Positions 3,664 through 48,802 of a stretch of 64,000 bases of DNA are shown here, piece by piece (position 1 is the stretch's first letter; the number at the start of each line of letters is the position of its first letter). Location of the stretch: NCBI GenBank assembly GCA_963826115.1, contig CAWGVS010000005.1:2061137-2125136 (forward strand), given 5' to 3'. Origin of the DNA: an uncultured Candidatus Rokubacteria bacterium (GTDB taxonomy: Bacteria > Methylomirabilota > Methylomirabilia > Rokubacteriales > DASRDR01). Both the position numbers and the translations under genes were made by a program. A model generated the notes under the pieces. It worked only from the letters and a program-made list of their open reading frames with translations, was not told where the DNA came from and did no database searches.

Positions 3664-4395
3664 GTGGCGCCGCTGGCCCGCGAAGCCTCACGCACCGAGT
3701 TGATGGATCGGCTCGAGGCGTCCCCCGCCGAGCTCGCCCGGAACCTCGCCGACATCGCCCGTCTGAACCGGATCGGCGCCACCCAGGCCATCCTGCGGCA
3801 CGTCGCGCCGTTTCTCGCGCTGCTCTCCCCGGGCGAGACCCTCCGGATCCTCGACGTCGGCACCGGGGCGGCGGACATCCCGCTGGCCCTCGCGGGATGG
3901 GCCCGGCATCACGGTCATCGCGTGCGGATCGTGGCCCTCGAGCTTCATCCGACCATCCTGCGGTACGCCGCGCGTGCCGCGACGGGCACGCCCGAGGTGA
4001 GCGTCGTCGCGGGCGACGCGCTCGAGACACCGATCCGCCCGGGTTCAGTCGACGTGGCGATCTGCTCGTTGGTCCTCCACCATCTGCCGGAGGAAGCCGT
4101 GGTCGCTCTGCTCCGACGGCTCGCCGACCTGGCGCGCCTTGGCTTCGTCGTGAGCGATTTCCGGCGGGGACGGGTCGCCTGGGCCGCTGTGTGGCTCGTC
4201 ACGCGGGCCGTCTCCCGGAGCCGGATGACCCGACACGACGGGCCCCTCTCGGTGCGACGGGCCTATACCCCGGAGGAGCTGGCGCTCCTGTCACGACGCG
4301 CCGGGCTCCCCGACATCCGGTGGCACCGGGCCCCTGCATTCCGTCAGATCGGCGTCTGGACCCGCGCGAGCGCCGGGACCGGTCATGACGGCTGA
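3664..4395 (+). CDS. Class I SAM-dependent methyltransferase (type III PKS-associated)
   Basis: ELMD N-terminal motif, ILDVGTGAAD, SLVLHH, HDGPLSVRRAYT; real part of ORF 3061..4395. Confidence 0.88.
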   Translation: MAPLAREASRTELMDRLEASPAELARNLADIARLNRIGATQAILRHVAPFLALLSPGETLRILDVGTGAADIPLALAGWARHHGHRVRIVALELHPTILRYAARAATGTPEVSVVAGDALETPIRPGSVDVAICSLVLHHLPEEAVVALLRRLADLARLGFVVSDFRRGRVAWAAVWLVTRAVSRSRMTRHDGPLSVRRAYTPEELALLSRRAGLPDIRWHRAPAFRQIGVWTRASAGTGHDG

Positions 4396-5647
4396 TGCCG
4401 TCATAGTCGGCGCGGGGCCGGCGGGGGCCGCCACCGCGATCTTCCTCGCTGAGCAGGGGCTTTCCGTGGTCCTTCTCGATCGCGCGCGATTTCCCCGCGA
4501 CAAGGTCTGCGGCGAGTACCTCTCGCCGGCGGGGCGCCGGATCCTGGACCGCCTGGGCGTCCTCTCCAGGGTGGAGGCGCGCGGGGCGCGTAGGCTCCGA
4601 GGGATGCGCATCCTCGCGCCCGACGGCACCCTCCTCGTCGCCGACTACCCCACCGATGAACCCTGGCACGGCCGTCGTCCGTACGCTCTCGCCATGCGTC
4701 GTCGGGCGCTCGACCTGGCGCTCGTGGAGCGCGCACGGGAGGTCGGCGTCACGGTCCGCGAAGGGATGCGCGTGAACGATCTTCTCCGCTCAGGCAGGCG
4801 GGTGAGCGGCGTGGTCGCCGAGCCCATCGAGGCCGGAGGACGGGGCCCCGCGGAGCGCGTCTCCGCGCGGCTGGTCGTCGCCGCCGACGGCCGCACCTCG
4901 GTGGTCGCCGAGCGGCTGGGACTCCGGCGCCCGCACCGCTGGCTCCATCGGCTCGCGCTGGTCGCCGACGTGGCAGGCGCGTGCGGCGACCCCGAGCGAG
5001 GCGAGATCCTCCTCGCTCCGCCCCACTACTCGATCCTGAATCCGGTGGCCCCCGGCGTGGGAAACCTGAGCCTCGTGGTCCCGATCGAGGAGGCGCGGCG
5101 GCAGAAGGCCGATCTTGCTGGCTACTTCGACAGGGCCACCCGGGCCCTGCCGGGATTCCGAGAACGACTGCGCGACGCTCGGCGTGTGGGACCGGTCCGC
5201 GCCCTGGGCCCTCTCGCCTACCGTGTCGATCCCCCGTCCCAGGACGGGGTTCTCCTGGTGGGGGACGCCGCCGGCTTCCTCGATCCCTTCACGGGCGAGG
5301 GGATCTACGCGGCCCTCCGCTCCGCCGAGCTCGCGGCGGAGGTCGGAACCCGGGCCCTACGGACCGGCGACGTTTCCGCTGCCGCGCTACGGCCCGCTCA
5401 CGTCCGGCGCGCGGTGGAGTTCGCGGCCAAGACCCGGGTGACCCTTCTCCTCCAGCGTGTCATCGCTCACCGGGCCCTCTCGGTCGCCGCTGCACGGCTC
5501 CTGGCTGCCCGGCCCGCCCATCTTTCGCGCCTGATGGGCGTCCTCGGTGACTTCGTGCGACCGGGCGCCCTCCTGGCGCCGGGATTCCTCGCCGGTCTCC
5601 TTGCACGCCCCCGGTCCCGCCTGGTGCGGTCACCGGAGATCCGCTAA
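4385..5647 (+). CDS. FAD-dependent oxidoreductase (geranylgeranyl reductase/flavin monooxygenase family)
   Basis: IVGAGPAG, FPRDKVCGEYLS, AADG, VGDAAGFLDPFTGEGI. Confidence 0.88.
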   Translation: MTADAVIVGAGPAGAATAIFLAEQGLSVVLLDRARFPRDKVCGEYLSPAGRRILDRLGVLSRVEARGARRLRGMRILAPDGTLLVADYPTDEPWHGRRPYALAMRRRALDLALVERAREVGVTVREGMRVNDLLRSGRRVSGVVAEPIEAGGRGPAERVSARLVVAADGRTSVVAERLGLRRPHRWLHRLALVADVAGACGDPERGEILLAPPHYSILNPVAPGVGNLSLVVPIEEARRQKADLAGYFDRATRALPGFRERLRDARRVGPVRALGPLAYRVDPPSQDGVLLVGDAAGFLDPFTGEGIYAALRSAELAAEVGTRALRTGDVSAAALRPAHVRRAVEFAAKTRVTLLLQRVIAHRALSVAAARLLAARPAHLSRLMGVLGDFVRPGALLAPGFLAGLLARPRSRLVRSPEIR

Positions 5648-5660
5648 GCTTCGGGCCGTC

Positions 5661-6485
5661 GTGGATCCGCGCAGCCGGCTCGTGGCGCTGGCCGGGACGG
5701 TCGATGCTCGCTCGCTCGCCGAGGGAGCGCTCTGGATCGCCGCCGAGGCTTGTCCCGGGCTCGACGTCCCGCACTGGATGGGACGCCTCGATGCACTGGG
5801 GCACCGCGCGTCCGAACGGCTCACGTCGGAGATGGACGTGGACCGGGCGGCCTCCGCCGTGGCCGGGTTTCTCTTCGAGGAGGAGGCGTTCCGGGGCAAC
5901 ACGGAGGACTACTACGACCCTCGCAACAGCTTCCTCAACGACGTGCTCGACCGCCGGCTCGGCATCCCGATCACGCTCTCCGTGGTGTACGTGGCCGTCG
6001 CGGCCCGGGCGGGGCTCGAGGCCGCCGGCGTGGGCCTGCCGGGTCACTTCGTCGTGCGGGCCGAGCGCGGCGGCCGCCACCGGCTTCTCGATCCCTTTCA
6101 CGGCGGCAGGCTCCTCGACCGTGCCGCCTGCGAGGCGCTGGTCTCGCGGGTCCGCCCCGGCGGCGGCCCGCTCGACCCGCGCTGGCTCACGCCGGTCACG
6201 ACGCGCCAGATCTTCGTCCGGATGCTCAGCAATCTGAAGGCCGTGTACTCGGCGCTCGGAGACTGGGCGCGCGCCCTGGCCGCCGTGGAGCGCATCCTTC
6301 TGCTCCTTCCCGACTCACTGGAGGAGATCCGCGATCGCGGCACGCTCAACGCCCGGCTCGGGAACGCGGCGGCGGCCGTGCAGGACTGGGACACGTATCT
6401 CCAGCGCGCGCCGGAGGCGTCCGACGCCCGCGTGGTCCGAAACCGGCTGCGCGCGCTGCGCCAGGCCCTGGCCTCCCGGAACTGA
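5661..6485 (+). CDS. SirB1 family protein (transglutaminase-like domain + TPR)
   Basis: FRGNTEDYYDPRNSFLNDVLDRRLGIPITLS, GLPGHF, DPF, RMLSNLK; C-terminal TPR-like helices. Confidence 0.88.
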   Translation: MDPRSRLVALAGTVDARSLAEGALWIAAEACPGLDVPHWMGRLDALGHRASERLTSEMDVDRAASAVAGFLFEEEAFRGNTEDYYDPRNSFLNDVLDRRLGIPITLSVVYVAVAARAGLEAAGVGLPGHFVVRAERGGRHRLLDPFHGGRLLDRAACEALVSRVRPGGGPLDPRWLTPVTTRQIFVRMLSNLKAVYSALGDWARALAAVERILLLLPDSLEEIRDRGTLNARLGNAAAAVQDWDTYLQRAPEASDARVVRNRLRALRQALASRN

Positions 6486-6599
6486 TCACCACGCTCAGCG
6501 GGACTCTGATCACCTCACGCGGACTCCGGTCGCTCAGCAGCATCGCCGCCTGGTCGTCCATGAGGGCCCGCTCGAGGGCCAGCCTCCGATGATCAGCGT

Positions 6600-6921
6600 C
6601 GAGATTCCTTGCGGCCGGCCGGGGGCGGTCACTGCCCGTCCCCTGGCGCGCCAGGCGAACTCTGGCCGCGATCGCCCGGGGTCGGGCATCCAGAACGGCA
6701 CCGGACACCCGGCCGCCCAGACGCTCCGCCAGGCCGCCGACGAGATCGTAGATCGGCACCCGTCGGCAGCCCGCCAGGCCGAGGACACGCGCCACGCGCA
6801 GAGCCTCGAACGGAGGGATCCGGAACGCGAGCACGCAGTCACCCGTGAGCGTCTCCACGACCAGCACGGCCTCCGCCTCCCGCGCCACTCCTTGCAGACC
6901 ACGCACTCGCACCGGCGTCAT
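6600..6921 (-). CDS. DUF151/bifunctional-nuclease-like protein, apparently truncated or frameshifted
   Basis: AVLVVE...LAFRIPPFEA...RVPIYDL resembles DUF151 (LPIWIG..EA...RP.THDL). Similarity is lost after ~6640 and the end is approximate. Confidence 0.45.
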
Positions 6922-6970
6922 CGTTCGCCTCCAGTCTGCCTCAGCGTGGTTCGTGTTACCAAATATGTAT

Positions 6971-6988
6971 GATTAGGTGACCTTAATC
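6971..6988. promoter_or_regulatory. Imperfect palindrome GATTAGGTGACCTTAATC, candidate repressor operator
   Basis: Lies in a locally AT-rich patch ~50 bp upstream of the 6921 start; TTAGG-N4-CTTAA core. Confidence 0.4.
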
Positions 6989-7040
6989 CATCATCATGTC
7001 AAGACCTTCTTCGAGAGGGACGGGGTGGGCGCGGGAACGA

Positions 7041-7235
7041 CTAGTGCCGGACGAACCGGCGGAGGTTCTTCAGGTAGTACCCCATCACGAGGGTGATCAC
7101 CGCGGAGATGAGAGCGATCACGAGGTGGCTCACCTCGCGCGTCTCGCGATAGGCAAGCGCCTCCCACCCCGTGTAGAACACGCCGAAGCAGATCGCCGTC
7201 CCGATCAAGAGCCGGTGCGCGATGATGATGAGCAT
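7041..7235 (-). CDS. Small membrane protein (64 aa, two hydrophobic segments)
   Basis: MLIIIAHRLLIGTAICFGVFY...LVIALISAVITLVMGYYL; GGAGG RBS upstream. Confidence 0.7.
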   Translation of the reverse strand: MLIIIAHRLLIGTAICFGVFYTGWEALAYRETREVSHLVIALISAVITLVMGYYLKNLRRFVRH

Positions 7236-7252
7236 CGGTCAGCCACCCTCCG

Positions 7253-8044
7253 TCATCCGATCACCCAGCCGCCGTCGACGCGCAGGACCTGGCCCGTCAC
7301 GTAGTTCGAGGCGGGCGACGCCAGGAAGAGGACGGCCTCCGCAATGTCTTCCGCCTGCCCCATCCGCGGGATCGGAAGCTCCTGGGCCGCGTAGGCGTAT
7401 CCACGGGTCATCTCCGTGTCGACACCGCCCGGGGCGACACTGTTGACGTAGATCCCGTTCTGACCCACGTCCTTGGCGACCCAGCGCGTGAACGCGATGA
7501 CACCCCCCTTGGCCGCCGCGTAGGCGGGGCCCGAGCGGCCGCCTCGAGCGTCCGGACTGTCCCCGGACCGTGACACCACACCCCCGATGATCCCTGAGAT
7601 CGACGAGATCGTCACGATCTTGCCGTAGCCCTGGTCGCGCATCACGGGCACCACAGCCTGGACGGCGTGAAAGGTCCCCGTCAGTACCACCTCGACGACG
7701 CGGCGCCATACAGTCTCGGTCGTCTCCTCGAGCGGGTCCCGGTGAATGATCCCGGCCGCGGTCACGAGGATGTCGAGGCGCCCCAGCGTGGCCATCACGC
7801 GCCCGACCACTGCACGGACCGCCTCGGCGTCGGTCACATCCAGGGTGAGGCCCATCGCCCGCCTGCCAGTCGCCGAGATGCCCGCCTCGGCCTCACCGGT
7901 GGGCAGGAGATCTGCCACGGCGACATCCGCACCGGCCCGAGCCAGAGCCACGGCGGACGCACGACCGATCCCCCGAGCGCCTCCGGTCACGAGCGCCACC
8001 TGGCCACGAAGATCGGCCGGACCGCTCGACCGGGGAATCGGCAT
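7253..8044 (-). CDS. SDR family oxidoreductase (FabG-like)
   Basis: VTGGARGIG, YAAAK, NSVAPG, TGQVLRVDGG. Confidence 0.92.
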   Translation of the reverse strand: MPIPRSSGPADLRGQVALVTGGARGIGRASAVALARAGADVAVADLLPTGEAEAGISATGRRAMGLTLDVTDAEAVRAVVGRVMATLGRLDILVTAAGIIHRDPLEETTETVWRRVVEVVLTGTFHAVQAVVPVMRDQGYGKIVTISSISGIIGGVVSRSGDSPDARGGRSGPAYAAAKGGVIAFTRWVAKDVGQNGIYVNSVAPGGVDTEMTRGYAYAAQELPIPRMGQAEDIAEAVLFLASPASNYVTGQVLRVDGGWVIG

Positions 8045-8047
8045 CGG

Positions 8048-10477
8048 CTACCCCTTCCTCCGCGGCACCGCGAGGGCGCCCGGGGCGAATCCCAGGGCCG
8101 ACATGAGAGGCGCCAGCGCCTCCCGATCGCCCGGGGATCCGTCGCGCCACAGACGGGCGACGACGTTCTGGGCCTCCCAGAGATCCGGGGGGGCCTCGAG
8201 CCCAGCCCCGAGCGCCAGGAGCGCGAGCCCATCGGTGACGGCCGTGGCCGTGGCAGCAGCCCGGAGCGCCTCGAGCACGCGCCCGAGGGCCGACTGGATC
8301 GACGGCACGACCTGCTCGGCGGTCAGCTCCAAGGAGATTCCCAGCGACCGCGTCTCGGCGACGAGCTCGCGAAGTCTTTGCGCGGCTTGGGTCACGGGAC
8401 CGCCGGCGGCGAGCACGGCGAGCTCCTCCCTCGCCGCCCGAGCCAGAAGGCGACGGGCCACGTCCGCGAGAGACGGCGGGATGGGGCCCTCCACCAGGCG
8501 AAGCTCGGCCAGGAGCCGGCGGCTGCCGGCGTCGATCCACTCCCCCGCACCCTCCGGGGCCGCCAGGGCACGCTCGGAGAGACGGGCCAGAAGACGGCGG
8601 CGCTCGTCGGGAAAAACGTCATCGGCGCCGTATGACCGGCCGCCGAAGTGCCGGTCGAGCGCGGCAGGCAGGTCCCCCTGCCCTCGGCCCGAGAACTCCC
8701 GCAAGAGCGCGTCCCGAGCGAGCGCGAGCGCCTCCCCCTCCGATCCCGTTCGCACACGGCAGTGGACGTGGCCGTCATGGGCGTGCAGCACGGCCAAGTC
8801 CGCCTCCTCGCACTCGGTCGTGAGGCGCGCGGTCACGCGCACCCGGCCGACCGCGAGCGAAGCCTCGCCCGCGGCCACGCGGGACCACCGGAGCCGCTCG
8901 ACCCGAAACGCGTGGACGTCGGCCGGGTCTCCGTAGCCCTCTGACGGTCCCGCGATCGCGTAGTGGGCGGCCACGCGCGCGAGATCGGTCACGGCGGGTA
9001 ACACGTGGCGCCGCCACACGACGGCGCCGTCCTGCAGCTCGGGAACGTTCGATGGAGCGACCGCCAGACGCCGGACCAGCTCCGCCTCGAGCCCGGCGTC
9101 GCCGCCGAGCGCATTCGCCAGCTGCAGCACGCGCGCCGCGTACCGGAGCACCTGGACCGTCTCGATTCCCGAGATCTCGTCGAAGAACCAGCCGCACGAC
9201 GCGTACATGAGCAGGCGGTGGCGCTGGAGCTCGAGACACCGGAGCGCCTGGACGCGGCCCGCCGCGTCCAGCGGGCGGAGCGCGTGGCGCTCGAGGAAGG
9301 CCTCCACGGACGCGGGGCTCCGGTCGAGGACCACCTCTACGTATGCGTCACGCGCGGCCCAGGGATCCTTGAGCAGCGCGCCCGCTCGCGCCTCGTAGAG
9401 CGCGTCCACGGAGTCGCGCAGCCAGTCGAGCGCCTCGCGGAGGGGCGCCCGCCAGCGCTGCGTCCAGCCGTGATGGCGGCCGGCCCGGCATCCGCAATCG
9501 CCCCGCCACCGCTCGACGCCGTGCGCACAGCTCCACGAGGACCCCTCGACCACCCGCGCCTCCAGCGTGGGGGGATGAGCCGCGAGGAAGGCAGCGTGGT
9601 TGGTCAGGCTCGCGGCGCCGCTCGCCTCGATCCGGGCGGACGCCGCTGCCAGCGCCATCTCGCCGAAGCGATGGTGGTGGCCGTAGCTCTCGCCGTCGGT
9701 GGCGACCTGAACGAGCTGAGGGTGCGCGCCCTCGTCGAAACCGGCCAGGAGGCGCGTCGCCATCGCCTCACCTGATCGGAGAAGTCCGTCGAAGGCGACC
9801 GCGTGGGAGATCGCCCCGTCGTAGAAGAAGAGCGCGAGTGCCCGGCCCTGCCCTCCTTCCCAGCGGTACGCCCGTCGCGGATCGAGCGCCAGGGCTCCGG
9901 GCCGCCACTCCCCATCTGGCTCCCGCACGCCGGCGGCCTGCCCCGGCGCGAGGAGCGTGAAGCGCACCCCCTCCTCGGCCAGCACGTCGAGGGTCTCGCG
10001 ATCCGCGGCGGTCTCGGGAAGCCACATCCCGGCCGCCTCGCGACCGAAGCGGTGCCGGAAGTCGGCGAGACCCCATCGCACCTGAGTGACCTTGTCGCGC
10101 CGGCTGCAGAGCGGAAGGATGGCGTGCCCATATGCCTGAGCGATCGCGTTCCCGTGTCCGCGGTCCCCCCGGCTCACCCGGTCCGCTTCCAGGATCGCGC
10201 GGTAGACGTCGGGACGCTCCCGCTCGAGCCAGGCCATGAGCGTGGGGCCGACGTCGAAGGCGAGCGCGGCGAAGTTGTCGACGACGTCCAGGATCCGGTT
10301 CTGCGCGTCCACGCGGCGCGCGGCCGTGTTGGGCGCGTAGCACTCCGCGGCGACGCGCGCGTTCCAGTCGTGATACGGGGCGGCGGAGTCCTGGGTCTCG
10401 ACGCGCTCGAGCCAGGGGCTCTCGCGGGGAGGCTGGTAGAAGTGACCGTGGATCGCGACGAACCGCGGGCGACTCAT
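8048..10477 (-). CDS. Glycoside hydrolase family 57 / DUF3536 protein
   Basis: MSRPRFVAIHGHFYQPPRE start at 10477; GMWLPET (nucleophile Glu); ATDGESYGHH; SWSCAHGVERW; MYASCGWFFD. Confidence 0.9.
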   Translation of the reverse strand: MSRPRFVAIHGHFYQPPRESPWLERVETQDSAAPYHDWNARVAAECYAPNTAARRVDAQNRILDVVDNFAALAFDVGPTLMAWLERERPDVYRAILEADRVSRGDRGHGNAIAQAYGHAILPLCSRRDKVTQVRWGLADFRHRFGREAAGMWLPETAADRETLDVLAEEGVRFTLLAPGQAAGVREPDGEWRPGALALDPRRAYRWEGGQGRALALFFYDGAISHAVAFDGLLRSGEAMATRLLAGFDEGAHPQLVQVATDGESYGHHHRFGEMALAAASARIEASGAASLTNHAAFLAAHPPTLEARVVEGSSWSCAHGVERWRGDCGCRAGRHHGWTQRWRAPLREALDWLRDSVDALYEARAGALLKDPWAARDAYVEVVLDRSPASVEAFLERHALRPLDAAGRVQALRCLELQRHRLLMYASCGWFFDEISGIETVQVLRYAARVLQLANALGGDAGLEAELVRRLAVAPSNVPELQDGAVVWRRHVLPAVTDLARVAAHYAIAGPSEGYGDPADVHAFRVERLRWSRVAAGEASLAVGRVRVTARLTTECEEADLAVLHAHDGHVHCRVRTGSEGEALALARDALLREFSGRGQGDLPAALDRHFGGRSYGADDVFPDERRRLLARLSERALAAPEGAGEWIDAGSRRLLAELRLVEGPIPPSLADVARRLLARAAREELAVLAAGGPVTQAAQRLRELVAETRSLGISLELTAEQVVPSIQSALGRVLEALRAAATATAVTDGLALLALGAGLEAPPDLWEAQNVVARLWRDGSPGDREALAPLMSALGFAPGALAVPRRKG

Positions 10478-39946: not shown

Positions 39947-41032
39947 CTACGGGCGGCCCGCGTCCAGCTCCTTCGCGAGCTCCTCTCGTTGAGCGCTGAC
40001 CTCGGCGGGGACGTCGCCGTAGACGTGGTCAAACATGTCGATGAGGCGCGCCGCCCGCATTCTCGCCTCGGCGCGCTCGATGGCGGCTCGCACCTCGGCG
40101 TCCACCTCCGCCTCGAACCGAGCATGCAACGCGTCATCGACGAGACCCTTCGTCTCGAGATAGCGGCGGAGGCGCGGGAGCGGCTCCCGCGCCTCCCACG
40201 CCGCGACCTCGGCATCCTCGCGATACTTCCTCGGATCGTCGGCGGTCGAGTGAGGCGTCAGGCGGTACGTCACGGCCTCGATGAGCGTGGGGCCGCCGCC
40301 CTCGCGGGCCCGCGCGACCGCCTCCCGCGTGACGGTGACCATGGCCAGGAGGTCGTTGCCGTCGACCTGGATCCCCGGAAGGCCGTAGGCCAGGGCCCGG
40401 TGCGCGAGCGTCTTGGCCCGCGTCTGCCTCGACCGGGGGATCGAGATCGCCCACTGGTTGTTGACACACACGAAGACGATGGGCGCCTGGAAGCTGCCCG
40501 CGAAGTTCATCGCCTCCTGGGTGATCCCTTCGGAGCTGGCCCCGTCGCCGAAGTAGCAGAGGACGACGCTGTCCTCCCGCCGGGCGCGGGCGGCGCACGC
40601 CAACCCGACGGCGTGAGGGACGTGAGTACCCATCGGGACGCAGACCGGCAAGTCCCGGATGCCCGCGGGGACGGAGGTGCCTTCCGAGAGGCCCGCGTAG
40701 AGGAGGATGAGGCTCTCGAGCGGCCAGCCCCGCCAGACGTAGGCGGCCCACTCGCGCCAGACGGGAACGAGCCAGTCGGTCGAGCGCAGGGGATACACGC
40801 TGCCGAGAACCGCGGCCTCGTGTCCGCGTGCCGGCAGATAGGTGCCGATCCGGCCCTGACGCTGGAGGAGGAGCATGCGCTCGTCGAACCGGCGTGCGAG
40901 CAGGAAGGTCCGGTAGAGGCGCCGGAGGTCGTCGGGTGGGATCAGCGGCTCGAGGTCACGGTCCAGCTGTCCGTCCTCGTCGAGGATCGAGAGGGCGGCG
41001 ATCGGGTCCAGGTCGATTCGCTGGCGCGGCAT
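39947..41032 (-). CDS. pdhA: 2-oxoacid (pyruvate) dehydrogenase E1 alpha subunit
   Basis: LQRQGRIG, GDGASSEG...NNQWAIS TPP motif, VDGND, TYRLTPHSTADDP. Confidence 0.88.
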   Translation of the reverse strand: MPRQRIDLDPIAALSILDEDGQLDRDLEPLIPPDDLRRLYRTFLLARRFDERMLLLQRQGRIGTYLPARGHEAAVLGSVYPLRSTDWLVPVWREWAAYVWRGWPLESLILLYAGLSEGTSVPAGIRDLPVCVPMGTHVPHAVGLACAARARREDSVVLCYFGDGASSEGITQEAMNFAGSFQAPIVFVCVNNQWAISIPRSRQTRAKTLAHRALAYGLPGIQVDGNDLLAMVTVTREAVARAREGGGPTLIEAVTYRLTPHSTADDPRKYREDAEVAAWEAREPLPRLRRYLETKGLVDDALHARFEAEVDAEVRAAIERAEARMRAARLIDMFDHVYGDVPAEVSAQREELAKELDAGRP

Positions 41033-41035
41033 GCT

Positions 41036-41885
41036 CTAGGGCTCGACGGGTACGTCGTCGCGGCCGCCCCATTCGGTCCAGGACCCGTCGTAGACGGCGA
41101 CGTCCGGGCGCCCGGCGAGATCGAGTCCCAGGGCGAGGACGCAGGCCGTCACTCCCGAGCCGCACGACGTCACGATGGGCCGGTCGAGCTTCACGCGAGC
41201 CGCCTCGAACACCCGTCGGAGGTCCGCCTGCGGGAGCAGCGTCCCGTCCGGTCGGAAGAGCCGATCGTAGGGCAGGCTCAGGCTTCCGGGAATGTGTCCT
41301 CCGCGGAGGCCAGGGCGCGGCTCGGGCTCGGTGCCCGCGAAGCGGCCGGCCGATCGGGCATCCACGACCTGCGCGAGCCCCGTCCCCAGGTTGCGGCGGA
41401 CGCCGTCCAGGTCCGTCACGAGCCCGGGATGGAAGCGCGCGGTGAAGTGGCGGCGCACCGGGGTGGGCTCTCCCGCCTCGACGGGCCGGCCTTCCTCCCG
41501 CCATCGCGGGAAGCCACCGTCGAGGACGGCCACGCGATCATGTCCGAACACGCGCAAGGTCCACCACACGCGGGCCGAGGCGGTCAGGTGCTTCCCGGCA
41601 TACACCACCACCCGGTCGTCGTCGCCGATGCCGAGGGCGCCCGCCGCCTCGGCGAAGGCTGCCGCGTCGGGCAGCATGTGAGGGAGCCCTCGCTCCCGGT
41701 CGGCGATCGCGTCGATGTCGAAGTAGACGGCGCCGGGAATGTGGGCCGGCGACGAACTCCGCCCGCGCGTCGCGCCGGAGCTGTGGCATGTACCACGTCG
41801 CGTCCACGATGCGGAGAGCGGGGGCGCCCAGATGGTCGGCGAGCCAAGCCGTGCTCACCACGGGGCCGAAGCTCGTGTCCGTCAT
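41036..41885 (-). CDS. sseA: 3-mercaptopyruvate sulfurtransferase (frameshift ~41745)
   Basis: VSTAWLA, VDATWY, HMLP, RVWW, LDGG, CGSGVTAC active-site loop, YDGSWTEW. Confidence 0.88.
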
Positions 41886-41980
41886 CGCGCGTTCCCCTCC
41901 GGGTCGAAGCGTCACGCCCGATTATGGCACGGAGGTGGCCGCGGCGCGGGCGGCCGCCAGGGTCGCCCGGCGCGCGATGG

Positions 41981-42655
41981 TTAGCCGGCCGGTGCGGAGG
42001 CGAGCAGGCCTCCGAAGATCCGCCGACCGAGCTCGAATGCCTCGGCGAGGAGCAGCCCCGCCCCGTCGCCGTCCGGCGTCTCGCGGCGCCACTCCGCGAG
42101 CTCCTCTTCCGACCGGAAGAAGTTGAGGCGGGTTCAGAGGAAGCCCGAGAGGCGGTCGCCGCCCCATCGACTCCGCTCGACCCACGCGAGGCTTCCGGGG
42201 GGAGCCTGGCGGGGACCGGCCACCGGATCGACGTCGAAGACCAGCGGGGCGCGGCTCCGGTGACAGCGCGACCTGAGCGTCACCGGACTCCCGGTCATCG
42301 GCGCGACGCCGAGGGCGTCGATCGCGCAGCACGCATAGCGCGTGCGGCCACCGGGAAGCACCACCGCGAAGTCGTTCGGCTCGGCCGTGAACGGGTACGC
42401 GAGCGTGACGCGGTCTCCATCCAGCCCGATCAGGTCCGCGGCGTCGAGCGACGCCGCTCGCGCTCGGAGCGCCTCGGGCCCGAGCCCCGCACCAGCCAAG
42501 CACACGGCTTCGAGGGCAACCGGCCCGCCGGCCTCCACGAACTCTCGCCAGATGGCGCGGAGCAGCGGATCGTCCCGCTGTGCCCGCCGGGCCGCCCATT
42601 CCCCCGCCCGCTCGGGCGTGAGGATCTCGGCGGCGGTCCGGATCTCGACTCTCAC
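41981..42655 (-). CDS. MerB (alkylmercury lyase)-like protein, predicted selenoprotein
   Basis: GTG start overlaps the anti-sigma stop; [18 protein letters not shown]. In-frame TGA at 42136-42134 reads through to [20 protein letters not shown]...[10 protein letters not shown] and TAA at 41983-41981. Confidence 0.85.
42103..42122 (-). promoter_or_regulatory. Candidate bacterial SECIS hairpin CTTCTTCC-GGTC-GGAAGAGG
   Basis: 8-bp stem (one G-U) with GGUC loop, starting 11 nt after the in-frame UGA. Confidence 0.72.
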
Positions 42656-44265
42656 GCCCCCGAGCTTCGCACGACGCCGGCCGCCCGGGCGAGCCGTCCG
42701 GCGAGCGCGCCGGCGCCGAGGCAGACCACGGCGACCCAGATCGCTCCGCCCACCAGGGGCAGCACGGTCGCAAGCGTGACGAGGGCCAGGCCGAGCACCA
42801 GCGCCCGCAGCGCGTCGCGTCTCGGGTCGCCGCGCGGCCGGAGCAGCGCCTTCCCGACGGCGAGACCGACCACGATCTTCGCCGCGTAGAGACCCAGGAG
42901 GTAGAGCCCGAGGAGGACCAGCGCCAGCGGAAGGCCGACGAGGGTCACGGCGAGGAGCAGTATCAGGACGGGGCCCCCGACGAGGGTCGCCACACCCCAC
43001 CCGAGGGATCGCTTCCAGCTCCGCACCCCGTTGGCGCTCTCGACGACCAGGCCAGGCACGAACAGGAGCGCGGCCCAGCCAAGGAGCGCCGCGCCAAAGA
43101 AGCTCGTCGCCGCCCAGAACCACGCGCGCGGCTCTCCATACCACCCGGCGGCGCGCGATGCCACGCGCGTCAACACCGGGCCTGTCACGGTCGCGCCGCC
43201 GTCGACGGTCACGGCCGACGGTCGGACGACGTCGGCCCGGACCGTCCCCTCGAGACGGGCCGGCGCCCTCACCACGAGCCGGTCCCCACGGAAGCGGAGG
43301 TCCCGGCGGACGCGGCCGCTCACCTCCGCGTCGTGAGCCACGATCGTCGCGCCGCGTCCGATCTCGCCGCCGAGCGACAGGCTCCGACCGGCGAGCGTGA
43401 GGTCGCCCCCGACGCTTGCGCCGGGCTCGATCACCGTCACGCGGTCGGCGGCATAGAGCCCCCGGCCGACTCGGCCCCGGACAGTCAAGGAGCCGGCGGC
43501 GGCATAGACACTGCCCTCCACCCTGCCGGTCACCTCCACGGTTCGCGCCACGACCACGAGGTCGCCGCGGACCGTCCCGCGCACGTCGACCTGCGCCGCG
43601 GCGACGATCAGGTCACCATCGATCGTCCCGTCGACCCGAACGCTCTCGGCGGCGGCGACCAGCGTCGCGTCGACCGTTTCCCCTGCCGCGATCGCCACGT
43701 CCCTCCCGCTCCGTGTCTCCAGCGCCTCGGCGGGCGGCGAGGCAACCCCCGCAGCGGCTCCGAGAGCCAGCGCGAACGCCGCGAGCGCGCGCGGGGGAGT
43801 CCGCCCGAGGTAGAGCCCGCCCGCAAGGGCCAGCCCGATCATCATGGTGATCGCTCCTGTCGCGAGCGCGAGCTCCAGCGTGGCGGCGTTCGTCACGACG
43901 AAGAGCACGCCCTCCACGGCGAGGCCGATCCAGTCACCCGGAAGGTCGCCCCACCCGGCGAGGCGCCCGACGCCCGCGGCGCCCAGCAGCGCGGCCAGAG
44001 TGAGCCCCCACGCGCCGGCGCGTCGCCCGTTCGTCGGCGCGCCCAGACGCCCGAACATCGACGCGGGCCGCCCCGCCGGCGCGAGCGCCGTCTGCTCGCC
44101 GAAGGCCGCGCCGAGGATCCGGTTCTCCTCGCGAAGCGCCGCGACCAGCGCCTGGCAACGCGTGCACTCGGCCAGATGACGTTCAGCGGCCCGCGCTTCC
44201 TCCGGGGACAGCTCCCCATCCGCATACACCGCACAGGTGAGCTCGCTCAGGCACGTCATCGTCAA
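42652..44265 (-). CDS. ZAS (zf-HC2) anti-sigma factor fused to bactofilin-like beta-repeat region and multi-TM C-terminal domain
   Basis: YADGEL...HLAECTRC (HxxxCxxC); TM segments; repeats VDGTIDGDL / VRGTVRGDL / VTGRVEGSV; hydrophobic C-terminus. Confidence 0.82.
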   Translation of the reverse strand: MTMTCLSELTCAVYADGELSPEEARAAERHLAECTRCQALVAALREENRILGAAFGEQTALAPAGRPASMFGRLGAPTNGRRAGAWGLTLAALLGAAGVGRLAGWGDLPGDWIGLAVEGVLFVVTNAATLELALATGAITMMIGLALAGGLYLGRTPPRALAAFALALGAAAGVASPPAEALETRSGRDVAIAAGETVDATLVAAAESVRVDGTIDGDLIVAAAQVDVRGTVRGDLVVVARTVEVTGRVEGSVYAAAGSLTVRGRVGRGLYAADRVTVIEPGASVGGDLTLAGRSLSLGGEIGRGATIVAHDAEVSGRVRRDLRFRGDRLVVRAPARLEGTVRADVVRPSAVTVDGGATVTGPVLTRVASRAAGWYGEPRAWFWAATSFFGAALLGWAALLFVPGLVVESANGVRSWKRSLGWGVATLVGGPVLILLLAVTLVGLPLALVLLGLYLLGLYAAKIVVGLAVGKALLRPRGDPRRDALRALVLGLALVTLATVLPLVGGAIWVAVVCLGAGALAGRLARAAGVVRSSGA

Positions 44266-44834
44266 GCCCTCTCATCCAGATCCGCGAGCAGCCGGCGCAG
44301 AGCCTGCTTGCCGCGGAAGATCAGGATTGCCACGTGGTTGCGCGTCACCCCGAGCTGGCTCGCGATCTCCTCGTAGCCCAGCTCGCCGTAGTAGCGGAGG
44401 GCCAGCGACACTCGGTACCGCTCGGGCAGACGCTGAAGGGCCCTACGGACCCGATCCCGCCCCTCGTCGGTCAGCACGGTCGCGAGGGGCGACGGCCCGC
44501 CCTCTCCTTCCGCCGCCCCGCCGTCGGCCTCGTCCCACTCCGCGGCGAACAGCCGGGACTCGAGCCGGCGGCGCCGGAGCACGTCGAGGCAGTGGTGGCT
44601 CGTCACGCTGAGGAGCCAGCGGTCGAAGGGGAGGGCCGGCTCGTACCGGCCGATCGCGTGCGGCAGGCGGAGGAATACGTCGCTCCGGGCATCCTCGGCC
44701 GCATCCGGGGAGCCAAGGATGTGGCGGCAGAGACCCAGCACGCGCCGCCCGAATTCCTGGTAGAGCTCGGCGAAGCCCTCGCGCTCTCCGCGCCGGGCTC
44801 GCTCGACGGCCCCCGCCACCTCGGTCGAGTTCAT
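44262..44834 (-). CDS. ECF RNA polymerase sigma factor
   Basis: AEDARSDVF, FDRWLLSVTSHHCLD, LPERYR, LGYEEIA region 4; ATGA overlap with the anti-sigma. Confidence 0.92.
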   Translation of the reverse strand: MNSTEVAGAVERARRGEREGFAELYQEFGRRVLGLCRHILGSPDAAEDARSDVFLRLPHAIGRYEPALPFDRWLLSVTSHHCLDVLRRRRLESRLFAAEWDEADGGAAEGEGGPSPLATVLTDEGRDRVRRALQRLPERYRVSLALRYYGELGYEEIASQLGVTRNHVAILIFRGKQALRRLLADLDERA

Positions 44835-44850
44835 GGTCCTCCGACGAGTC

Positions 44851-44876
44851 TACGAACCGGCCCCCCCGGGAGTTAC
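44851..44876 (-). promoter_or_regulatory. ECF-type promoter GTAAC-N17-CGTA (autoregulatory, sigma operon)
   Basis: AAC -35 / CGT -10 ECF signature ending 16 nt before the sigma ATG. Confidence 0.65.
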
Positions 44877-44928
44877 ACGGGGACCCGCGCCTACGGTCAC
44901 CCGGGCCTCGTGGCCGGCGGCCCCGGCC

Positions 44929-44954
44929 GTAACGGGGCGGGGCGCCCGTCCGTA
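44929..44954 (+). promoter_or_regulatory. ECF-type promoter GTAAC-N17-CGTA (divergent desaturase operon)
   Basis: Same motif and spacing as the minus-strand copy. Confidence 0.65.
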
Positions 44955-45008
44955 TGACTGTACGAGCGCCCGATCGGGGCCCAGCTAGCCAACCAGGAGG
45001 AAACGCGC

Positions 45009-45836
45009 ATGTCTTTCGAACGCATCCTGACGGACTACGGAGAGCCTCTGCAATACGTGACCTATTTCGGTCTGCTGGCAGGACTCGGCGCGATGGAGGC
45101 CGTGGCCCCTCGATGGAACGGCCCGGCGGAGCGCACGCGTCGGTGGCCGGCGAACTTCGGCCTGACGGCGCTCAACATCGTGGTGCTGGGAGCCCTGCCG
45201 GTCAGCGGTCTGGCGGTGGCCGCCATCGCCCGGCAGCAGGGCTGGGGGATCCTCCAGCGCTACCCCTTGCCCCCCGCCGCCACGCTCGGGGTGGCGCTCC
45301 TCGCGCGAAGCCTCGTCTCGTACGCGGTCCACGTGGCGATGCACAAGGTGCCCGCGCTGTGGCGCGTGCATCGTGTCCATCACACCGACGTGTTCCTGGA
45401 CATCTCGACGACCGTCCGGTTCCATCCGCTCGAGTTCCTGATCCAGCTCGGGCCGACGGCCCTCGTCATCCTGGGCCTCGGCCTGCCGCCGTGGACGATC
45501 ATGCTCTACGAGCTGGTCGATACGGCGACGAACCTCTTTATCCACGCGAACGCCCGGGTGCCGGCCCGCCTCGACGCCGGGCTCCGCCTCCTCCTCGTCA
45601 CCCCGGACATGCACCGGGTCCATCACTCGGCCCTCGGGCCCGAGACGGACTCGAACTACGGGGTGGTCCTGCCGTGGTGGGATCGGCTCTTCGGCACCTA
45701 CCGCGCCGCCATCGGCGCCCCCCGGGACACGCGGCTCGGCCTCGAGGAGTGCCAGGATCGGCGGGCATCGTCACTCGGCTGGCTCCTTGCGCTCCCGTTC
45801 CGGGGGCGTCTCGAGCGCGTGGCGGAGCGCACCTGA
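45009..45836 (+). CDS. Sterol desaturase / fatty acid hydroxylase family protein
   Basis: His boxes HVAMH, HRVHH, FIHAN, HRVHHS; RFHP; NYG...WDRLFGT. Confidence 0.9.
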   Translation: MSFERILTDYGEPLQYVTYFGLLAGLGAMEAVAPRWNGPAERTRRWPANFGLTALNIVVLGALPVSGLAVAAIARQQGWGILQRYPLPPAATLGVALLARSLVSYAVHVAMHKVPALWRVHRVHHTDVFLDISTTVRFHPLEFLIQLGPTALVILGLGLPPWTIMLYELVDTATNLFIHANARVPARLDAGLRLLLVTPDMHRVHHSALGPETDSNYGVVLPWWDRLFGTYRAAIGAPRDTRLGLEECQDRRASSLGWLLALPFRGRLERVAERT

Positions 45837-45879
45837 GATGCAACGCTCAACGCCCTGCCCCGTGACGGAGGGTCTCGAC

Positions 45880-46401
45880 ATGCCCCCTGATCCGGTCGCC
45901 CATGCTGGTCCGTCCGCCACGACGAGCGTCGCCGACGACCATCCTGGCGTCGTCGCGCGGCCGCCCCGGATCGCCTACCTCTTCCTGGGGATCGGAGCGA
46001 TCCTGGGATGGGTCAGGCCTCTTGCCCTTTTGCCGCTCGGCTCACCGGCGGCCCTCCGTTACGGCGTCGGCGGCGCGCTCGTCGGCCTGGCCCTGGCCGC
46101 CATGGCCCTGGCCCTCCGAGCCTTCCGGCAGGCGGGAACCAACGTCGAGACGCCCAAGCCGGCGATCGCGCTCGTGACCGGCGGGATCTACGCCTGGTCG
46201 CGGAATCCGATGTACGTCGCCCTCGCGCTCCTCTTCGCGGGCATCGCCGTGCTCGCCGACAGCGGCTGGCTCGCGCTGCTCCTCGTCCCTTACGTGGCCG
46301 TCCTGAGGGTCGGTGTGATCGCGCGCGAGGAGCGCTACCTCGACCGGAAGTTCGGGGCGCCCTACCGTGTCTATCGCGCGAGCGTCCGGCGGTGGCTCTG
46401 A
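45880..46401 (+). CDS. Isoprenylcysteine carboxylmethyltransferase (ICMT/PEMT) family membrane protein
   Basis: LVTGGIYAWSRNPMY, REERYL..KFG..Y..Y...VRRW. Confidence 0.88.
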   Translation: MPPDPVAHAGPSATTSVADDHPGVVARPPRIAYLFLGIGAILGWVRPLALLPLGSPAALRYGVGGALVGLALAAMALALRAFRQAGTNVETPKPAIALVTGGIYAWSRNPMYVALALLFAGIAVLADSGWLALLLVPYVAVLRVGVIAREERYLDRKFGAPYRVYRASVRRWL

Positions 46402-46432
46402 GCGGCTCGGGCAGGTCTAGAATGAGAGGGCG

Positions 46433-46897
46433 ATGCGCGAGTACCAATACCGAGTCGACGCCGAGGGGCGGGTATTCCACGACGGAAGCGAGGTTCTCGA
46501 CCCCCTGACGCTCCGCTTCTTCCTGCGCGCCATGACGCGCACGCCTGAGGGACGCTGGCTCGTGGTGTGCCAGGGGGAGCGGAACTGGTTCGAGTCCGAG
46601 GGCACCCCCTTCGTCGTGCAGCGGGTGCGGCCCGTCCTCCGCGAAGGGGCGCTGGACGGCCTCGAGCTCGTCCTGGCCGGCGACCACCGGGAGCCGCTCG
46701 ACCCGGCCACGCTCGAGAGCGAGGGGGGCCGACTCTGCTGCCGGGTCCGGCGCGGCGCGTTCCCGGCGCGGTTCGGCCGCCTCGCGCTCCAGCAGCTGGG
46801 CGCCCATCTCCGCGACGAGGACGGGCGGCCCGCCCTCGTTCTTGGCGGCGGCCGCCACATCATCACCGACCATGAAAGGACTCCCGAGCTCACATGA
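46433..46897 (+). CDS. Hypothetical protein (DUF1285-like)
   Basis: YRVDAEGRVFHDG, EGTPFVV, CRVRRG.FPARF.R; coupled to the next gene by ATGA. Confidence 0.55.
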   Translation: MREYQYRVDAEGRVFHDGSEVLDPLTLRFFLRAMTRTPEGRWLVVCQGERNWFESEGTPFVVQRVRPVLREGALDGLELVLAGDHREPLDPATLESEGGRLCCRVRRGAFPARFGRLALQQLGAHLRDEDGRPALVLGGGRHIITDHERTPELT

Positions 46898-47679
46898 CGG
46901 ACGCGGAGACCGACCCCACTCCAGGCATCCCTGAGCGCGGCAAGAAGACGCGGACGACGGGCGAGCCCTCACCCCCCGCCCGCGCGATGAGCATCCACGC
47001 CCATCCGGACGATCAGGAGTTCACGGTCGGCGGCACCCTGGCCAAGTGGGCGCGCGCCGGCACTGCCATCGTCACCGTGTGCATCACGCGCGGCACCGGC
47101 GGGTCGAATCGATTCACGCCTCCGGAGATGACCCGGGAGGCCCTGGGGCCGATCCGGGAGGTCGAGCAGCGGAGCGCGTGCCGGGTGCTCGGATCGCGGA
47201 CACGTGGTTCCTCGACTACGACGGACGGGATGCTCGAGTCGACCATCGCGCTCCGCCGGGACCTCACGCGCCTCATCCGGCGCTTCCGGCCGGACGCGGT
47301 CGTGTGCGGCGATCCCACGGTCCGGTACTACGGGTCCACGTACCTGAACCACCCCGACCACCGGGCGGCCGCCGACGCCGCCCTCGACGCCGTCTTCCCG
47401 TCGGCGGGCACGCGGCTGATCTTCCCGGAGCTGCTCGCCGAGGGGCTCGAGCCCCACGAGGTCCGCCAGGTCTACATCCACGGGGCCGAGCGGCCCGACA
47501 CGTACGTCGACATCGCCGGAACACTCGACGTGAAGCTGGCCGCCCTCCGCGAGCACCGGAGCCAGATGGGCGAGTGGGACCCCAAGGAGTTCCTCGTGGA
47601 GTGGGCGCGCGAGCAGGGCGTCAAGGCGGGCCTCGAGGCGGCGGAGTCCTACCGGCGAATGGTGCTGGAGGGACCCTAG
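46894..47679 (+). CDS. PIG-L/LmbE family deacetylase
   Basis: HAHPDDQEF, NHPDH, KLAALREHRSQ; short compensating frameshift near 47190-47225. Confidence 0.88.
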   Translation: MTDAETDPTPGIPERGKKTRTTGEPSPPARAMSIHAHPDDQEFTVGGTLAKWARAGTAIVTVCITRGTGGSNRFTPPEMTREALGPIREVEQRSACRVLGSRTRGSSTTTDGMLESTIALRRDLTRLIRRFRPDAVVCGDPTVRYYGSTYLNHPDHRAAADAALDAVFPSAGTRLIFPELLAEGLEPHEVRQVYIHGAERPDTYVDIAGTLDVKLAALREHRSQMGEWDPKEFLVEWAREQGVKAGLEAAESYRRMVLEGP

Positions 47680-47727
47680 GCAGGCAGGCCGACAGATCTC
47701 AGCGAGCCCGCCCGCAGCCCACCGCCC

Positions 47728-48802
<1,075 letters not shown>

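Follow-up and report, generated by a model that had tools for sequence, protein, structure and literature searches.

Do a sigma factor of the extracytoplasmic function (ECF) type, its membrane anti-sigma factor, a MerB-like protein and two divergently encoded membrane enzymes make up a single stress-response system? The question is raised by positions 41981–46401 of a 64,000-nucleotide stretch of DNA (the window) from an uncultured Candidatus Rokubacteria bacterium (assembly GCA_963826115.1, contig CAWGVS010000005.1). An original prediction, made from the sequence alone, proposed an integrated sense-and-respond unit there, in which thiophilic-metal or envelope stress induces a selenium-containing MerB together with the membrane enzymes. 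The observation underlying that prediction is confirmed, and its overall interpretation is partly supported. In our reading, to which we give a probability of roughly 0.65, the locus consists of two units side by side, a conserved sigma/anti-sigma module and a gene for a MerB-like protein with selenocysteine (Sec-MerB), which are joined only in the window's genus. All coordinates below are window coordinates, and the sigma/anti-sigma/MerB operon is on the minus strand of a region with a G+C content of ~70–75%.

44262–44834, minus strand: ECF (group 4) sigma factor, 190 aa (Pfam Sigma70_r2 48.5 bits, r4_2 53.9 bits)
42652–44259, minus strand: ZAS/bactofilin-like membrane anti-sigma factor, 535 aa from a conserved ATG (zf-HC2 33.4 bits, Bactofilin 40 bits)
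41981–42655, minus strand: MerB-like predicted selenoprotein, 224 aa, with C110, D113 and U174 (PF03243 82.6 bits)
45009–45836, plus strand: membrane enzyme of the FA_hydroxylase/sterol-desaturase family, 275 aa (Pfam 105.8 bits)
45787–46401, plus strand: membrane methyltransferase of the PEMT/ICMT family (Pfam PEMT 53.9 bits, ICMT 25.1 bits)

The two plus-strand genes diverge from the sigma operon across a 174-bp intergenic region. The three minus-strand genes had been described as chained by ATGA and GTGA overlaps, and this holds for one junction only: the anti-sigma stop and the MerB GTG start share a GTGA overlap, which is read directly in the sequence. The sigma/anti-sigma junction is TGA-CG-ATG instead, with a 2-nt gap and an ATG start kept in 11/11 orthologues; a TTGA overlap at this junction would need the TTG at 44265 as start. 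The PEMT/ICMT open reading frame (ORF) runs from TTG 45787 and has an alternative ATG at 45838, 1 nt past the hydroxylase stop.

The sigma/anti-sigma module and its promoters

The sigma protein matches the sigma70-ECF model NCBIfam TIGR02937 with 93.7 bits against a cut-off of 42.9, and Pfam r2, r4_2 and r4 are matched as well. It has the features of an ECF (group 4) sigma factor: regions 2 and 4 only within ~190 aa, a cognate anti-sigma gene directly downstream, and a promoter of the AAC/CGT type. Its nearest solved relatives are SigW, sigma-H and SigE.

The pairing with the anti-sigma factor is conserved beyond the genus. When the anti-sigma protein was searched against 251 genomes of the phylum, full-length orthologues outside the genus appeared in G019 (52% identity), G016 (46%) and G024 (40%), and two more stand on metagenome contigs (L142, 39%; L143, 37%), so that the module's hosts outside the genus are three genomes (two sister genera and one other family) and two metagenome contigs. 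In all five cases a sigma orthologue with 57–64% identity is adjacent to the anti-sigma gene, whose product has 37–48% identity when the two are compared as a pair, in agreement with the tightly coupled pair that had been proposed.

Two promoter-like sites occupy the intergenic region between the sigma gene and the hydroxylase gene:

44851–44876, minus strand: putative autoregulatory ECF promoter, GTAACTCC...TTCGTA, 16 nt upstream of the sigma ATG
44929–44954, plus strand: putative divergent ECF promoter, GTAACGG...CCGTA, 54 nt upstream of the FA-hydroxylase ATG

GTAAC-N17-CGTA is present once per strand in this 174-bp region. The strict motif GTAAC-N16-17-CGTA has 8 matches in the whole 6.24-Mb assembly, against ~23 expected from base composition, and four of the 8 are the window pair and the same pair on C11, a contig of a co-binned congener. 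The motif pair at the sigma locus is far above chance. A relaxed pattern, [GT][TA]AA[CG]-N15-18-CGTA, is found exactly once per strand in 14/15 sigma-proximal intergenic regions; the 15th, at L124, is cut by the contig end and has the pattern on the sigma side only, so that the sigma-side motif is kept in 15/15. The background of the relaxed pattern is 75 matches on both strands of the whole assembly (12.5 Mb), or 0.0024 per 200 bp. The matching ECF-type promoters that had been noticed facing both ways are thus kept in 14/15 regions, which fits autoregulation and a divergent membrane-enzyme target, and good comparative evidence points to a sigma factor that probably regulates itself and such a target.

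Two other strict sites lie outside the window, both on the minus strand: one at G000:C5:1675939, 37 nt upstream of a Tat-signal DUF3500 gene, and one at G000:C10:266949, ~100 nt upstream of a gene for a metallo-beta-lactamase (MBL)-fold (Lactamase_B_2) lipoprotein. Both genes are possible additional members of the regulon, judging from these sites.

The divergent genes were identified earlier as a desaturase/hydroxylase and an ICMT-family methyltransferase behind a matching ECF motif, and the Pfam matches and the motif on both strands bear this out. The FA_hydroxylase protein scores 68 bits with the OlsE model, below its cut-off of 475. The methyltransferase exceeds the family cut-offs (PEMT 53.9 bits against 25, ICMT 25.1 against 24) and stays below that of the NCBIfam isoprenylcysteine methyltransferase equivalog (34.2 against 160). 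The hydroxylase gene accompanies the sigma pair only in the window's genus, where it is missing in G002, and is not beside the out-of-genus pairs. PEMT-like orthologues (40–56% identity) are divergent to sigma in G019, G016 and L142, as in the genus. In L143 this position is occupied by a gene for an RTX-like secreted protein, and the G024 contig ends before it. Overall, the divergent gene is PEMT/ICMT-like in 4/5 readable lineages. The output of the module is likely the modification of a membrane lipid or lipid-like molecule.

The anti-sigma factor is composed of an N-terminal zinc-binding anti-sigma (ZAS) domain, transmembrane (TM) helices, a bactofilin-like beta-helix and a TM tail. This architecture of an HxxxCxxC site, TM helices, bactofilin-like repeats and a multi-TM tail had been read from the sequence, and Pfam, hydropathy and an AlphaFold2 model all agree with it:

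within 42652–44259, minus strand: ZAS anti-sigma domain, residues 1–54 (zf-HC2, 11-sequence alignment)
44155–44178, minus strand: codons of the H28-x3-C32-x2-C35 zinc-binding (ZAS) motif, invariant in 11/11 orthologues
43162–43722, minus strand: bactofilin-like beta-helix, residues 180–366 (predicted local distance difference test, pLDDT, ~82–96 in 10-residue blocks)
within 42652–44259, minus strand: five-TM tail (DUF8173), residues 379–528 (hydropathy, model, PF26514 on homologues)

The N-terminal domain scores 33.4 bits with zf-HC2 against a cut-off of 22.2 and has, besides H-x3-C-x2-C, the upstream Cys expected of a ZAS domain; this residue, C3, is invariant in 11/11 orthologues and is likely the fourth zinc ligand. 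The central part exceeds the Bactofilin (PF04519) cut-off (40 bits against 27.9), matches bactofilin BacA (2N3D) with phmmer at E 2.8e-5, and matches 6rib with Foldseek at probability 0.96 but E 0.38. For the whole anti-sigma model Foldseek gave no PDB match at E <=0.001, only weak domain-wise ones. Precomputed annotations of database homologues combine PF13490, PF26514 (DUF8173) and PF04519. In a large protein set only 84 proteins match the anti-sigma factor at E <=1e-5, and the JGI names of matches are "anti-sigma factor RsiW" or "cytoskeletal protein CcmA". One database protein of 634 aa (P0177) has the MerB Pfam domain and is 62% identical to the anti-sigma factor over 43% of the latter; some relative thus has an anti-sigma–MerB reading frame that is either fused or mis-called.

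A structure prediction for the anti-sigma factor had been called for beforehand. AlphaFold2, run on the 11-sequence alignment, gives a mean pLDDT of 65.9, with confident N-terminal helices (residues 1–50) and a confident beta-helix at 180–366 (~90) that stands between helix bundles; residues 52–178 have pLDDT <50 and the tail at 379–528 has 52–67. Hydropathy and the model together suggest 3–4 helices at residues ~80–177 and five at 379–528, with hydropathy TM segments at ~110–152, 158–177, 381–403, 418–468 (two) and 482–525 (two). Arg/Lys-rich loops follow residues 152, 410 and 470, and the beta-helix is probably extracytoplasmic because the positive-inside rule, applied to these loops, places it there.

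Taken as a mechanism, the sigma factor would be held at the membrane by an anti-sigma factor with a cytoplasmic ZAS domain and a bactofilin-like beta-helix flanked by TM bundles. A signal, more likely from the envelope or membrane than a cytoplasmic metal, would free the sigma factor, and the anti-sigma factor may be removed by proteolysis. Free sigma would then fire two back-to-back promoters of the form (G/T)(T/A)AAC-N15-18-CGTA, one serving its own operon and the other the PEMT/ICMT-family methyltransferase gene, which in the genus is preceded by the FA-hydroxylase-family gene.

Linkage of MerB to the sigma pair

We took 35 MerB loci with ~6 kb of flanking sequence in both directions and mapped the window proteins onto them. 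Loci of the window's genus share a syntenic block: E1alpha, rhodanese, MerB, anti-sigma and sigma, followed divergently by hydroxylase, PEMT, a 154-residue protein and PIG-L. MerB is directly behind the anti-sigma gene in 10/13 genus loci (the window, G014, G013, G008, G012, G002, G001, G005, G011 and C11). In the other three (G003, G010 and G004) sigma, anti-sigma, FA-hydroxylase and PEMT are lost or degraded and an intact, TGA-bearing MerB gene is kept. Specifically, G003 has no sigma, anti-sigma, hydroxylase or PEMT gene, and ~100 nt of the anti-sigma 3′ end, including the GGAGG-GTG start, stands upstream of MerB; because this remnant is still alignable, we regard the loss as a secondary deletion. 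G010 retains only anti-sigma residues 289–537 and PEMT residues 106–204, and G004 only scraps of the module. None of the 13 genus loci has kept the module and lost MerB.

Outside the genus, MerB stands beside 0/5 of the orthologous sigma/anti-sigma pairs. The position downstream of the anti-sigma gene is taken by a VIT1-family gene, an AMP-binding enzyme, a LuxR-type regulator (twice) or small ORFs, and in G019 and G016 Sec-MerB is on other contigs than the sigma pair. Around the 23 out-of-genus MerB loci the neighbours vary: MerR (L064, L072), a second MerB with MerF (L064), MerE with HMA (L081), a MerA-like reductase (L060, L063), MetE-like and ABC-transporter binding proteins, luciferase-like monooxygenases, and LigD. 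An ECF sigma gene lies within 3.3 kb in 3/23 of these Sec- or Cys-MerB loci (L063, L075 and L076).

The original prediction had named as its own refutation the case that MerB is unlinked to the sigma pair in relatives and is neither co-transcribed nor sigma-dependent. The first half of this is what we find outside the genus, and within it MerB adjoins the pair at 10/13 loci. MerB is not a conserved output of the sigma pair: it adjoins 0/5 of the out-of-genus pairs, and it is kept without the intact module at 3/13 genus loci.

Three readings were considered and rejected. At L076, ECF sigma and MerB do not form an operon, as a secreted-protein gene on the opposite strand lies between them. At L064, the genes that follow the ECF/ZAS pair are DUF3179 and TlpA-like, and MerB comes with a MerR of its own. 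The C11 copy is no paralogue of the window locus: C11 (238,819 bp), which carries the whole sigma/MerB block, is collinear with C5:1.909–2.125 Mb, the last ~215 kb of C5, and because this collinearity is at ~80% nucleotide identity we take C11 to be a co-binned congener (contamination 5.34%) and not a duplication.

In the two-unit reading that we favour, MerB would be a passenger and not a defining component of the module. Since its start overlaps the anti-sigma stop in a GTGA, it is probably read through from the presumed sigma-dependent promoter, and co-transcription with the sigma operon at the window locus is plausible and indeed likely on this arrangement. Several points weigh against this reading or limit it. 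The genus loci themselves place MerB behind the anti-sigma gene in 10/13 cases, often with overlapping stop and start, and MerB may have been functionally recruited into the regulon within the genus. In the sister genus G015, a non-orthologous ECF/ZAS pair heads a mer-like operon with Sec-MerB, and the pairing of ECF/ZAS with MerB may be a recurring theme. Use of the promoters by the sigma factor is deduced from motif conservation, and the topology from hydropathy and a TM model of low confidence (pLDDT <50 for residues 52–178). A search for sequencing runs that contain the locus listed 24, all of DNA or unknown type and with a word share of at most 0.17, and no RNA run. In addition, the best MerA match in the assembly, at 388.6 bits, stays below the NCBIfam cut-off of 454.45.

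A MerB gene that is merely adjacent, independent of sigma and transcribed from a promoter of its own within the 3′ part of the anti-sigma gene, is the more probable of the alternatives, though a doubtful one. It draws on G003, where MerB survives with ~140 bp upstream, ~100 nt of it anti-sigma remnant; a promoter would have to lie within these ~140 bp because MerB would otherwise be silent there. Against it, a stop/start overlap usually means co-transcription, and a scan of 40900–47800 for sigma-70-like promoters, which is weak for the host phylum, gave 0 matches. A terminator scan of the same interval returned one terminator-like site, inside a gene and not above shuffles.

We consider it unlikely that the locus is an integrated system, in which attack on the ZAS zinc by a thiophilic metal or an organometal would set sigma free, with Sec-MerB and the membrane enzymes as co-evolved outputs. 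The GTGA overlap, the position of MerB at the 10 genus loci and the invariant ZAS ligands speak for it, as does the G015 operon, where another ECF/ZAS pair stands before MerC/T-like, MerE-like, Sec-MerB and MerA-like reductase genes with no MerR within 3.3 kb. Against it stand the 0/5 count outside the genus, the 3/13 genus loci that lost the module and kept MerB, the scarcity of ECF sigma genes near out-of-genus MerB loci (3/23, one of them separated by the opposite-strand gene), and the failure to find a canonical MerA in the assembly. The ZAS site as a thiophilic-metal sensor is unsupported, and many ZAS anti-sigma factors are not redox or metal sensors, which also counts against metal sensing here.

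A broader version is similarly improbable in our estimate: that ECF/ZAS pairs, not MerR, sense soft-metal or organometal electrophiles in Rokubacteriales, that the pair of this genus captured Sec-MerB, and that the G015 operon is a second, independent case. If this were true, one signal would co-induce the cleavage of carbon–metal bonds and the remodelling of membrane lipids.

The G015 locus (L063, G015:C3:51117-63773) is described here in its own right. At ~4057–9679 of the locus a row of minus-strand genes is headed by an ECF sigma factor and a 215-aa ZAS anti-sigma factor (HLETCADC), and continues with a MerC/T-like membrane protein (LCCLFPL), a MerE-like protein (CPC), Sec-MerB and a pyridine-nucleotide disulfide oxidoreductase. 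The redox motif of the oxidoreductase (GTCLGRG-U-IPKK) contains an in-frame TGA, the protein is without a C-terminal CC pair, and a canonical Cys-MerB gene is divergent from the row; no MerR was seen within 3.3 kb. Gene order and codons suggest that the row may be a mer-like operon under ECF control, with two selenoproteins among its products. L060 (G017) resembles it, but its contig ends. At L064 (G042:C142), an AhpC/TSA-like (TlpA-like) gene at 7140–7709 on the minus strand is present as two adjacent ORF pieces beside DUF3179 and the ECF/ZAS pair, and is possibly another TGA-interrupted selenoprotein gene. DUF3179 is a known selenoprotein family.

Two neighbours flank the window locus. Downstream of MerB, a 3-mercaptopyruvate sulfurtransferase (rhodanese) gene at 41036–41915 on the minus strand is split by a 1-nt frameshift near 41730–41745, with its first ~60 codons in one frame and the remainder in another; it is a single ORF in 5/5 readable congeners, and the frameshift is possibly an assembly indel in this long-contig metagenome-assembled genome. 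On the other side is a gene pair at 46433–47679 on the plus strand: the gene for the 154-aa protein, without a Pfam or NCBIfam family (DUF4505 is hinted at only weakly, E 0.04), runs into the start of a PIG-L/BshB-like deacetylase gene. This pair is retained in G003, where the sigma module is deleted, and therefore lies outside the module.

The selenocysteine MerB-like protein

The MerB-like gene contains an in-frame TGA, across which all profile positions of PF03243 (1–126 of 126) are matched with 82.6 bits. That this TGA is a selenocysteine (Sec) codon had been proposed, and the conservation of the codon, its Cys homologues, a conserved hairpin and the Sec machinery of the assembly all point the same way. 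Two features carry the case:

42134–42136, minus strand: TGA selenocysteine codon 174, at the MerB Cys159 position, conserved in 34/36 loci
42103–42122, minus strand: hairpin resembling a selenocysteine insertion sequence (SECIS), CUUCUUCC-GGUC-GGAAGAGG, with an 8-bp stem, starting 11 nt past the UGA

Counted over the window and the 35 fetched loci, the codon is TGA in 34/36 and Cys in 2/36 (L075 and L077), where the Cys forms are in the same register (C-x-T-L-N-F/L-F, before the L-N-F-F motif). The TGA is kept down to 39% identity. A read-through search of 61 related genomes, including the unpublished G055 and G038, had matches in 41 of them, and almost all of these matches contain a single in-frame TGA. 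By phmmer, U174 aligns to the catalytic Cys of MerB2 (PDB 5c17); in the alignment with R831b MerB, which has a one-residue gap here, its place is at the Cys-Cys pair that precedes HVHFF, and the Cys and Asp of the YAWCALD motif (Cys96 and Asp99) have C110 and D113 as their counterparts. The MerB active site is given as Cys96, Asp99 and Cys159 in the available text of Haft & Gwadz (bioRxiv 10.1101/2022.07.06.499078).

The string TTCTTCCGG[TG][CG]GGA[AG]GA occurs at a fixed offset in 31/32 complete TGA loci and in 0/2 Cys loci; the exception, L076, has a one-base variant. The string permits GAA or GAG at the first Glu codon, and in 11 nearby genes GAA is rare (16 against 158 GAG). A 71-nt fold by itself is not above shuffles (z 0.29), and an Rfam scan of 41000–47800 with E up to 1 gave 0 matches, so the SECIS case rests on conservation and not on folding energy. 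In form the hairpin appears similar to the SECIS of E. coli fdhF. SelB (347.8 bits), SelA (576.5 bits) and tRNA-Sec (76.9 bits) are together on assembly contig C8. SelD (393 bits) is on the window's own contig, outside the window (G000:C5:561687-562604), and with one in-frame TGA it is itself read as a Sec-containing selenophosphate synthetase.

With a conserved UGA and coding sequence downstream of it, Cys homologues, the hairpin, and SelA, SelB, SelD and tRNA-Sec all present, the gene is predicted to encode a genuine selenoprotein with Sec in place of catalytic Cys159. A true stop or pseudogene lesion, with the 50 downstream codons untranslated, would explain why gene callers end the protein at 173 aa and is barely credible given the end-to-end Pfam match, the retention of the TGA and hairpin, the Cys homologues at the site and the complete Sec machinery. 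Public protein sets stop the protein at 173 aa in nearly all of the best 120 matches listed. Within the window, Pfam and NCBIfam reveal no mer operon context (MerR, MerT/P or MerA).

Known systems and what the locus means

The closest parallel to the module is the sigma-L/RslA system of M. tuberculosis, likewise an autoregulated ECF sigma factor with a membrane-bound ZAS anti-sigma factor. By analogy, the combination of sigma, ZAS anti-sigma, ICMT-like methyltransferase and oxidative enzyme appears close in kind. Foldseek matches the N-terminal domain to RslA (3hug_D) with a probability of 0.99, at 31% identity across 58 columns and with an E of only 1.0. In sequence the window sigma factor shows no special closeness to SigL among ECF sigma factors, its best solved matches being those named above; RslA is without a bactofilin/DUF8173 part; and the methyltransferase gene in the window, unlike that of the sigma-L system, is divergent and adjacent to the sigma gene. 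The sigma-L regulon comprises four small operons, according to a passage in a review.

Among other ZAS anti-sigma factors (RsrA, ChrR, RsiW and DdvA), the N-terminal H-x3-C-x2-C domain is shared, with matches to DdvA (8rlz, E 0.002) and to ChrR (2q1z, Foldseek probability 0.99, E 0.88), whereas the C-terminal sensor part of the window protein is a bactofilin-like beta-helix with a five-TM DUF8173 tail. That part, residues ~155–530, resembles stand-alone Bactofilin/DUF8173 proteins (~380–420 aa) of many Rokubacteriales genomes at 28–37% identity, and it also matches Atlas clusters with PF26514 DUF8173 and Bactofilin at a score of 0.90. The stand-alone proteins are without a ZAS domain and are not beside sigma genes in the 9 loci examined. 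Full-text literature searches returned no paper describing an anti-sigma factor with a bactofilin/DUF8173 sensor part, or a module of a sigma factor with an ICMT/phospholipid methyltransferase.

Sec-MerB matches PF03243, and its C110, D113 and U174 align with catalytic residues of MerB (R831b, PDB 1S6L/3F0P; MerB2, PDB 5C17); it differs in having Sec for Cys159, in staying below the NCBIfam MerB equivalogs (52 against 193 and 40.6 against 200 bits), and in having no MerA, MerR or MerT in the window, a mer context being present for clade members in other genera. It also resembles SaoL (NF040728), which in the portions of the preprint by Haft & Gwadz (bioRxiv 10.1101/2022.07.06.499078) that are available has the MerB fold, shortened database entries and a Sec that stands ~50 residues from the C-terminus, where MerB has Cys159. 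The window protein scores only 35.2 bits with NF040728 against a cut-off of 140, over residues 67–139; its motif is L-U where SaoL has C-U; its neighbours are sigma, anti-sigma, rhodanese and E1-alpha in place of SAO genes (other Sao models were not scanned individually); and its hosts are aerobic-soil Rokubacteria in place of anaerobes, with Sec-MerB relatives in mer-like contexts. From these comparisons, Sec-MerB is assigned to a large soil-bacterial clade distinct from SaoL. The passages available from two selenoproteome reviews list only the SaoL type of MerB-like selenoprotein.

The analysis tells a real, conserved regulatory unit apart from a gene next to it that only looked like a member, which keeps a false "system" out of annotation. 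With its ZAS domain fused to a membrane protein of the bactofilin/DUF8173 kind, the anti-sigma factor offers a new and concrete sensor type for testing, and the module's conserved putative target, a PEMT/ICMT-like methyltransferase, echoes the M. tuberculosis sigma-L regulon. The Sec-MerB clade is systematically shortened in databases, which matters for the cycling of mercury and organometals in soil. Finally, the sister-genus operon raises the possibility that mer-like genes may be controlled by an ECF sigma factor instead of MerR.

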